64,000 nucleotides of DNA from Raja brachyura (Eukaryota), in the NCBI GenBank assembly GCA_963514005.1, contig OY740782.1:39184001-39248000 (forward strand). The letters are read 5' to 3'. The notes beneath the pieces are model-generated. The model saw only the letters and a list, made by a program, of their open reading frames with translations, was not told where the DNA came from and did no database searches. A program made the position numbers and the translations under genes. Shown here piece after piece: positions 19,272 to 19,416 of the stretch (positions are counted from its first letter, which is position 1; each line of letters begins with the position of its first letter).

Positions 19272-19416
19272 TGGGATAGTTTGACATGGGACACGCGCTG
19301 AGGGCTGATCATCCTGCAGCGGGCCGCCCTTGTGGAGGGTGTATAGTGTTAAAAGGCCGAAACACCCAGTGATGCAAGGGTACACTACTGATGATGTGTC
19401 CTGTGCCCAACTGTCC
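19272..19416 (+). ncRNA. Candidate non-circularly permuted hammerhead ribozyme in the Hero 3' UTR
   Basis: Stem III GGGTG 19337-19341 / CACCC 19363-19367; GUA triplet ending 19343; stem I TAGTGT 19344-19349 / ACACTA 19382-19387; CTGATGA 19388-19394; stem II GGCC 19322-19325 / GGCC 19355-19358 followed by GAAA 19359-19362. Extra helices CCCTTGT 19327-19333 / GCAAGGG 19374-19380 and GGACAC 19289-19294 / GTGTCC 19396-19401. Confidence 0.6.

Follow-up and report, generated by a model that had tools for sequence, protein, structure and literature searches.

Long interspersed nuclear elements (LINEs) are usually taken to replicate through linear RNA templates primed at their 3' end, and the self-cleaving ribozyme at the 5' end of the R2 element belongs to the hepatitis delta virus-like class. 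Hammerhead ribozymes were divided by Eckert et al. 2023 (PMC10085705) into three blocks that can follow one another in six orders, on the assumption that the CUGANGA block is inseparable from stem II. Here we analyzed a 64,000-nt stretch of the Raja brachyura genome (contig OY740782.1, positions 39,184,001 to 39,248,000 of the forward strand; hereafter the window) carrying a copy of Hero, a retrotransposon without long terminal repeats (non-LTR) that belongs to the restriction-like endonuclease (RLE) group. A motif in the 3' untranslated region (UTR) of this element is very probably a real hammerhead ribozyme, and the sequence evidence for its cleavage is strong. It appears to represent a hammerhead arrangement outside the six described, within an autonomous LINE. 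We lean slightly towards a model in which the hammerhead lets Hero replicate through a circular RNA, whose circularisation and rolling steps we infer from the layout of genomic copies.

All the hammerhead parts listed in a preliminary description of the window were found at their places in the sequence and in the pair listing (Table 1). The strands follow the order stem II, helix X, S, G, X' and I'-CUGANGA, confirming a non-circular arrangement unlike types I, II and III (CGS, GSC and SCG), in which three stems meet at a junction free of pseudoknots. The proposed break in the backbone between A9 and G10.1 was also found: in 31 of the 33 rows of alignment A2 (see below) A9 enters helix P0 without a gap, whereas G10.1 follows hairpin H, which ends at the base preceding it and is itself entered directly from the 5' strand of P0. 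The outer stem thought to clamp this break does exist and is longer than first given: P0 comprises 11 pairs and begins right after A9. P0 and H are thereby predicted to insert a four-way junction into the hammerhead core. Helix X, described as a further clamp, is not a clamp alone: its position is that taken in type SGC hammerheads by the helix through which stems I and II interact. Folding of the 161-nt region returned a z value of -2.83. A search of the ribozyme region against Rfam retrieved no hammerhead or other relevant family, a result in line with hammerhead models that derive from the circular types.

Palindromic loops and GACG tetraloops are known as kissing-loop motifs. The loop of hairpin H holds a 6-base palindrome in 19 of the 33 rows (UGAUCA, UGGCCA or GACGUC) and a GACG tetraloop in several, while several rows are non-palindromic; L101 and L106 carry the palindromes UGUACA and UCAUGA.

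Relatives were collected by scanning metagenome contigs and retaining the best 79 of 321 loci, which were 37-78% identical in the endonuclease domain. A strict descriptor of the motif matched 43 of these 79 Hero 3' UTRs as well as the window, the matches being spread over 29 of 49 clusters defined at 80% protein identity. The same descriptor returned one site in the 64-kb window and none in 3,996 dinucleotide shuffles or 80 reverse complements. Nine of the loci missed have too little sequence 3' of the open reading frame (ORF). Many of the other 27-28 show the motif by eye, with short stems or one to two changes, and in about eight no motif was seen within 450 bases of the ORF. One cluster (L114, L117 and L120) has a long 3' UTR; a degenerate motif lies some 250 bases 3' of the ORF in L120, and none was seen in the other two within 450 bases.

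Alignment A2, produced by plain MAFFT, contains 33 rows with a median protein identity of 50%; besides the window it includes 32 descriptor matches out of 43, near-duplicates and two doubtful rows having been excluded. The predicted structure paired 82.5% of the cells, as compared with 30-46% for slid structures, and two-sided changes occurred in 218 cells against 68 in shuffles. None of 500 shuffles reached the observed value; these controls disregard the relatedness of the rows, so the covariation counts are not to be read as probabilities. Stems I, II, III, X and P0, the helices for which a covariation check had been proposed, all covary. Stem II is paired in 98.5%, stem III in 92.9% and stem I in 96.6-100% of cases, while helix X reaches 87% with two-sided changes in four of its five pairs. 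P0 pairs were assigned row by row with a script that chose a wrong partner in about five rows, and support for hairpin H comes from per-sequence folding, not from column counts. CUGANGA and GAAA are invariant in all 33 rows, which had been selected by the descriptor; the A15.1-U16.1 pair is U-A in every row, and the cleavage triplet is GUU in 14, GUC in 10, GUA in 8 and AUA in one, never ending in G.

A second alignment, A4, was built from 28 rows, 12 of them descriptor misses, and was 82.9% paired overall, with stem II at just 54% in a single register. We put this low score down to gap placement by MAFFT, which shifts that strand: when sequences were examined singly with the upstream strand as partner, stem II formed four to six pairs in 39 of 39 descriptor matches. 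The alternative type SGC reading, with the stem II partner placed 3' of CUGANGA, gave zero to two pairs in 33 of the 39 and was rejected. The C3-G8 pair in A4 is C-G in 25 rows, U-A in two and U-G in one. The U-A rows, L059 and L063, belong to one family with the core UUGACAA, and the corresponding U3-A8 swap is natural and active in hammerheads (Perreault 2011). This exchange is the most telling of the changes. In further contigs, compensatory changes in helix X were seen in another family.

R2-type proteins bind structured 3' UTRs, which speaks for a different view of the motif, namely a non-catalytic docking fold for the Hero protein that is merely hammerhead-like. Such a fold would suit the fact that most genomic copies keep both sides of the site, and no natural break between A9 and G10.1 is found among the hammerhead core variants consulted in Perreault 2011 or assumed in the scheme of Eckert 2023. 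We consider it very improbable, given that the catalytic positions are all invariant in A2, that the triplet never ends in G, that the core tolerates the swap of C3-G8 to U3-A8, and that the helices become mutually compatible once the stem II partner is taken upstream. The genomic traces of cleavage described below, which begin at the predicted bond, argue against it as well.

The cleavage site predicted after A19343 agrees with inserts and with a fusion to U6 small nuclear RNA (snRNA) that begin at 19344, hereafter +1. The genome was searched for the sequence 3' of the cut preceded by any base except the native A. This pattern matched only three times, in each case in a solo insert of 230-240 nt running from the cut site to the normal 3' end of the element; one of them, L244, is ambiguous and could begin three bases earlier with one change. 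A sample of 90 copies, drawn in their order along the genome, had about 15 truncations within the surrounding 275 bases; about 0.17 starts would therefore be expected at the cut base (P = 0.0007 for three starts, 0.013 without L244). In locus L245 (G000:C8:48.97 Mb) a full-length U6 snRNA (118.8 bits) ending in five T is joined to +1; the genome contains 24 exact U6 3' ends, and no other among them is fused to Hero. According to Moldovan 2019 (PMC6789731), U6/LINE-1 fusions need the cyclic phosphate of U6, a partner with a 5'-OH and the ligase RtcB, and mature U6 typically ends in five U. In the chimeras of that study such a U6 had been ligated to a retroelement RNA carrying a 5'-OH before retrotransposition; by analogy, L245 suggests that Hero RNA is cut at the predicted bond in vivo and is a substrate of RtcB. 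The reported U6/LINE-1 junctions are scattered and without a motif, whereas the single Hero junction lies at the predicted ribozyme bond. Weighing on the other side, the fusion is a single event, carries a one-base T ambiguity and has no target-site duplication that we could find. Several other U6 3' ends in the genome are followed by apparent fragments of other LINEs.

The position of the cut within the element bears on its function. In the reference copy the 3' end lies 233 nt downstream of the predicted cut, 18 of 20 sampled copies end at the identical sequence, and the flanks examined contain no poly(A). The window copy had lost its tail at 19420, so that the cut was wrongly placed about 75 nt inside the element. 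Processing of the RNA 3' end, the role first suggested for the ribozyme, was not borne out, and 3'-end maturation was discarded, since the cut falls between the ORF and the priming site, 233 nt short of the fixed end. Cleavage would thus separate the ORF from the priming site, and a linear template would not survive it, yet almost every insertion extends across the cut.

To describe the architecture of insertions, 30 copies were chosen solely by their 5' UTR, two of them from one array of about three units. Twenty-seven of the 30 continue seamlessly upstream into their own 3' end, head to tail, and are therefore longer than one unit, with upstream repeats of very varied length; 13 pass the upstream cut, 12 of which extend beyond the whole ribozyme, and none starts at the junction. 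The junction itself shows point changes alone, in 16 distinct contexts. Template jumping is known for R2; end-to-end jumps on a linear RNA whose 5' end lies at the head-to-tail junction are disfavored by these two observations. Clear target-site duplications of at least 9 nt accompany 3 of the 30 insertions.

Comparison of the 5' and 3' repeats of the same insertion showed agreement at 109 of 116 diagnostic sites, with 7 discordant, as compared with 67 agreements expected for unrelated copies. Paired repeats of single insertions have private variants in common, and of the 83 differences counted between the repeats of 15 insertions only one was common to two insertions. The first flanking base after the 3' end is T in 104 of 122 cases and is followed by G in 37 of these 104, against a frequency of 0.247 (P = 0.009), matching the continuing element sequence.

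These genomic copies favor the last of the roles suggested for the ribozyme, circularisation or concatemer resolution. In the resulting model a copy longer than about 1.07 units would carry two ribozymes and be transcribed through both, and double cleavage would release an RNA of unit length, about 4 kb, whose ends bear a 5'-OH and a 2',3'-cyclic phosphate. The ends would be joined by RtcB or by the ribozyme itself, the inter-fragment helices P0, II, X and III keeping them together; RtcB is the enzyme that circularised animal retrozyme monomers in vitro (Cervera 2020, PMC7229834). Because the priming site of the unit-length RNA lies near its 5' end, the ORF would be templated only if the ends were joined. 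The Hero protein would then prime target-primed reverse transcription at the fixed internal site 233 nt past the cut, and reverse transcription would cross the ligated site and might exceed one lap, so that two-ribozyme masters would be renewed. Rolling round a circle would account for the fixed 3' end, the variable extra length, the seamless junction and the matching repeats.

Several observations weigh against the circular template. Variants shared between repeats are explained equally well by RNAs from a single master and by a single circle, flank positions +3 to +5 are not enriched, and the flank bias could reflect a preference of the endonuclease. Among the 21 copies that reach the region in the second lap, eight stop at +36 to +46 (window 19379-19389) and none at +1, while first-lap stops in this interval amount to 0 of 25 in one sample and one to two of about 80 in another; the pile-up of 5' ends is present in both subfamilies. 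A covalent circle does not predict it, and it suggests an RNA 5' end or a block at this position. Snap-back priming of the cDNA on stem I was rejected as the origin of these starts, the predicted inverted bases being missing in all four pattern matches. Solo copies starting at +36 to +46 (L241, L242 and L332) may be recombination products.

The pile-up, being specific to the second pass, is better accommodated by an active hammerhead working on a linear, terminally redundant RNA, which would start in the upstream repeat, either at the cut or near +36 to +46, where there would be a start site or a stall, and would end beyond the priming site. Drosophila HeT-A, with its tandem promoter, offers a parallel for such a start. 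The downstream ribozyme would be slow, blocked by protein or still clamped once cut, so that reverse transcriptase (RT) crosses the nick, and homologous strand transfer would give seamless multimers. About 28 inter-fragment base pairs could keep the cut products together, all three +1 copies are solo, as expected of a released 3' product, and type SGC ribozymes are slow (0.007-0.19 per min; PMC10085705). We rate this explanation as possible, with a chance well below even: detaching the ORF from the priming site would bring no evident benefit to keep the core conserved at a median protein identity of 50%, the 13 copies that pass the upstream cut do not fit it, the G bias at +2 suggests that the template continues as element sequence, and inspection by eye of the +36 to +46 junctions showed no consistent extra G derived from a cap.

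Multimers can also be produced by DNA recombination between terminal repeats, a further point against the circular template. The array included in our sample (L160 and L165, G000:C29:1.357-1.370 Mb) consists of about three units arranged head to tail, interrupted by a 2.9-kb insertion and by an internal deletion; its units differ from one another at 4-9 bases per 840 and from L164 at 3-9, hence not less than from some other copies. Interconversion of solo and multimer forms by recombination between direct repeats is established for LTR elements. The hammerhead might also act as a brake or in RNA turnover, with the cut detaching the priming site and limiting transposition, and with the tandem layout arising at the DNA level. 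Direct-repeat recombination can indeed yield both forms, and the solo +1 inserts show that cut fragments exist. Recombination presupposes repeats, however, and their presence in 27 of 30 copies, with very varied length, points to a copying step; we consider a function as a brake very improbable.

As for the circular template, related loci in other assemblies show the same layout. In nine of them the 3' UTR runs into a conserved 5' UTR, and L098 and L102 contain two ribozymes each, about 3.7 kb apart. The assembly of L055 is circular, its termini overlapping by 55 nt, an outcome that collapsed repeats can also give. The stretch is covered by contigs from four runs presumed to be RNA, and one of 3,921 nt crosses the junction; this material is too weak to be used.

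The host element was characterized from its full-length copies. The complete unit measures 3,977 nt, and L171 and L173 contain a single ORF with an intact frame of 1,181 codons. Its product matches Pfam RVT_1, the nearest solved structures are R2 proteins, and a CCHC knuckle and endonuclease motifs were recognised by eye. At the start of the RT, 56 of 77 residues are identical to HERO-1_BF (supplement of PMC7650587) in a by-eye count, and on sequence grounds the element belongs to the Hero clade. Named homologues are from teleosts, sturgeon and lamprey; no relative was found in the viral contigs searched. A 24-base stretch of the family recurs without mismatch at least 393 times in the genome. 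The window copy, corresponding to positions 956-3826 of the full-length one, is 5'-truncated and frameshifted, and about 160 terminal bases are gone after its last position; the ribozyme motif starts a few bases 3' of the stop codon of the RT-endonuclease ORF. A second, diverged Hero copy (66% identical) lies in L040:18-1769, upstream of the family copy.

Both ends of the element carry further structured regions. In L083-L090, L099 and L101, and in the last 45 bases of this family, a short hairpin is followed by CUGUAU or UGUAU before the 3' end; the arrangement is present in many families and is a candidate recognition element for the RT. The 5' UTR (L173:4225-4330 and homologues, alignment A3), a region absent from the window copy, contains three to four tandem units of UGAC and a hairpin with a purine-rich loop of the GAAAG type, kept with covarying stems in 11 loci. 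No Rfam family matched this 5' UTR, and the array is a candidate protein-binding or cap-independent translation element.

Elsewhere in the window, related short elements with terminal inverted repeats occupy 16248-17591, 23893-23939 and 25800-25883. The first of them contains a nested long hairpin (17140-17278) that gives spurious microRNA matches. A 455-codon RT frame at 22040-23407 on the minus strand belongs to a different LINE, CR1- or L2-like by eye.

Table 1. Positions in the window of the Hero copy and of the parts of its predicted ribozyme (MFE, minimum free energy)
Feature	Position	Strand	Evidence
Hero (RLE non-LTR) retrotransposon copy	15187..19420	+	blastn against L173, 95-96% identity; ORF pieces
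Insertion with terminal inverted repeats, splitting the RT region, foreign to Hero	16248..17591	.	break between the blastn pieces; 16251-92 matches 17547-88 in inverted orientation
Restriction-like endonuclease domain at the C terminus, with stop codon TGA (19264-66)	18790..19266	+	ORF translation, homologues
Distal outer stem, 5' strand (partner 19409-19420)	19270..19281	+	MFE fold; wobble U of the window is a Watson-Crick C in other copies
P0, 5' strand	19285..19295	+	80.6% paired (A2), two-sided changes in 6/6 pairs
Hairpin H, loop with palindrome UGAUCA (19306-11)	19296..19321	+	folding per sequence
Stem II, 5' strand GGCC; G10.1 = 19322	19322..19325	+	98.5% paired in A2
Helix X, 5' strand (stem I-II interaction helix)	19327..19333	+	87% paired in A2
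Stem III, 5' strand (19337-42) and GUA triplet (19341-43), predicted cut after A19343	19337..19343	+	92.9% paired; copies and U6 fusion begin at 19344
Stem I, 5' strand, first bases of predicted 3' cleavage product	19344..19349	+	96.6% paired
Linker from stem I to stem II, 5 nt	19350..19354	+	window sequence
Stem II, 3' strand GGCC (19355-58), GAAA (19359-62; G12 = 19359) and stem III, 3' strand (19362-67)	19355..19367	+	GAAA invariant in A2
Helix X, 3' strand	19374..19380	+	pairing counts in A2, per-sequence pairs
Stem I partner (19382-87) and CUGAUGA (19388-94; C3 = 19388, G5 = 19390, A9 = 19394)	19382..19394	+	CUGANGA invariant in A2
P0, 3' strand, immediately after A9	19395..19405	+	0-nt gap in 31/33
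Distal outer stem, 3' strand; window copy ends here	19409..19420	+	MFE fold; blastn end

Taken as a whole, we would give an even chance to the view that Hero elements are autonomous non-LTR retrotransposons replicating on a ribozyme-made circle by rolling-circle target-primed reverse transcription, with a four-way-junction hammerhead opened between A9 and G10.1 and lying outside the six arrangements, possibly with pairs of ribozymes held by kissing H loops and with cap-independent translation from a structured 5' UTR. A search of titles and abstract openings, in which subscription journals were thinly covered, returned nothing on Hero ribozymes, on a topology opened at A9/G10.1 or on circular templates of RLE elements, and prior notice is possible; a word search of a 2026 R2 review found neither "hammerhead" nor "circular". 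The motif would separate CUGANGA from stem II, contrary to the assumption behind the six permutations, in dozens of natural covarying examples; it would also place a non-circular hammerhead in animal genomes and explain why Rfam models miss it. Gene-insertion tools of the R2 type could profit from an enzyme with a priming site internal to a circular RNA and from a ribozyme able to clamp its own products.

Among the described hammerheads the closest is type SGC (HRIMA-1; PMC10085705), which has in common with Hero the order of cleavage site, GAAA and CUGANGA, a short linker between stems I and II, a helix joining the far sides of these stems and a pseudoknotted core. In type SGC, however, the stem II strand directly follows CUGANGA, whereas in Hero the stem II and X strands have moved to the 5' end, A9 leads into P0, and P0 and H form the four-way junction. 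The SGC examples given in that paper come from metatranscriptomes, none from a known organism, while the Hero motif resides in an animal genome, inside a LINE.

R2 (PMC13580325) likewise belongs to the RLE group, and its ribozyme releases the RNA of the element out of a longer transcript. That ribozyme is at the 5' end of a linear template, whereas the Hero hammerhead lies between the stop codon and the priming site, in copies that are terminally redundant. Penelope-like elements resemble Hero in being autonomous and in carrying a hammerhead within terminal repeats (pseudo-LTRs) derived from partial tandem copies, and differ from it in their RT lineage, their GIY-YIG endonuclease and their type I hammerheads. 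Retrozymes (PMC7229834; bioRxiv 10.64898/2026.07.22.740005) offer a parallel to the proposed mechanism: they contain tandem hammerhead copies, yield unit-length RNA with the 5'-OH and cyclic phosphate ends proposed for Hero, and a circle has been proposed as the template of their tandem cDNA. Those described in plants (LTR) and animals (non-LTR) are small elements that neither code for protein nor move autonomously; their hammerheads are of type I or III, and they are linked to Gypsy or Penelope partners. Hero, in contrast, is an autonomous element of about 4 kb that encodes an RT and a restriction-like endonuclease itself. If the circular template is real, the Hero clade, whose copies are terminally redundant, with a fixed internal priming site separated from the ORF by the cut, would be a protein-coding counterpart of the retrozymes.
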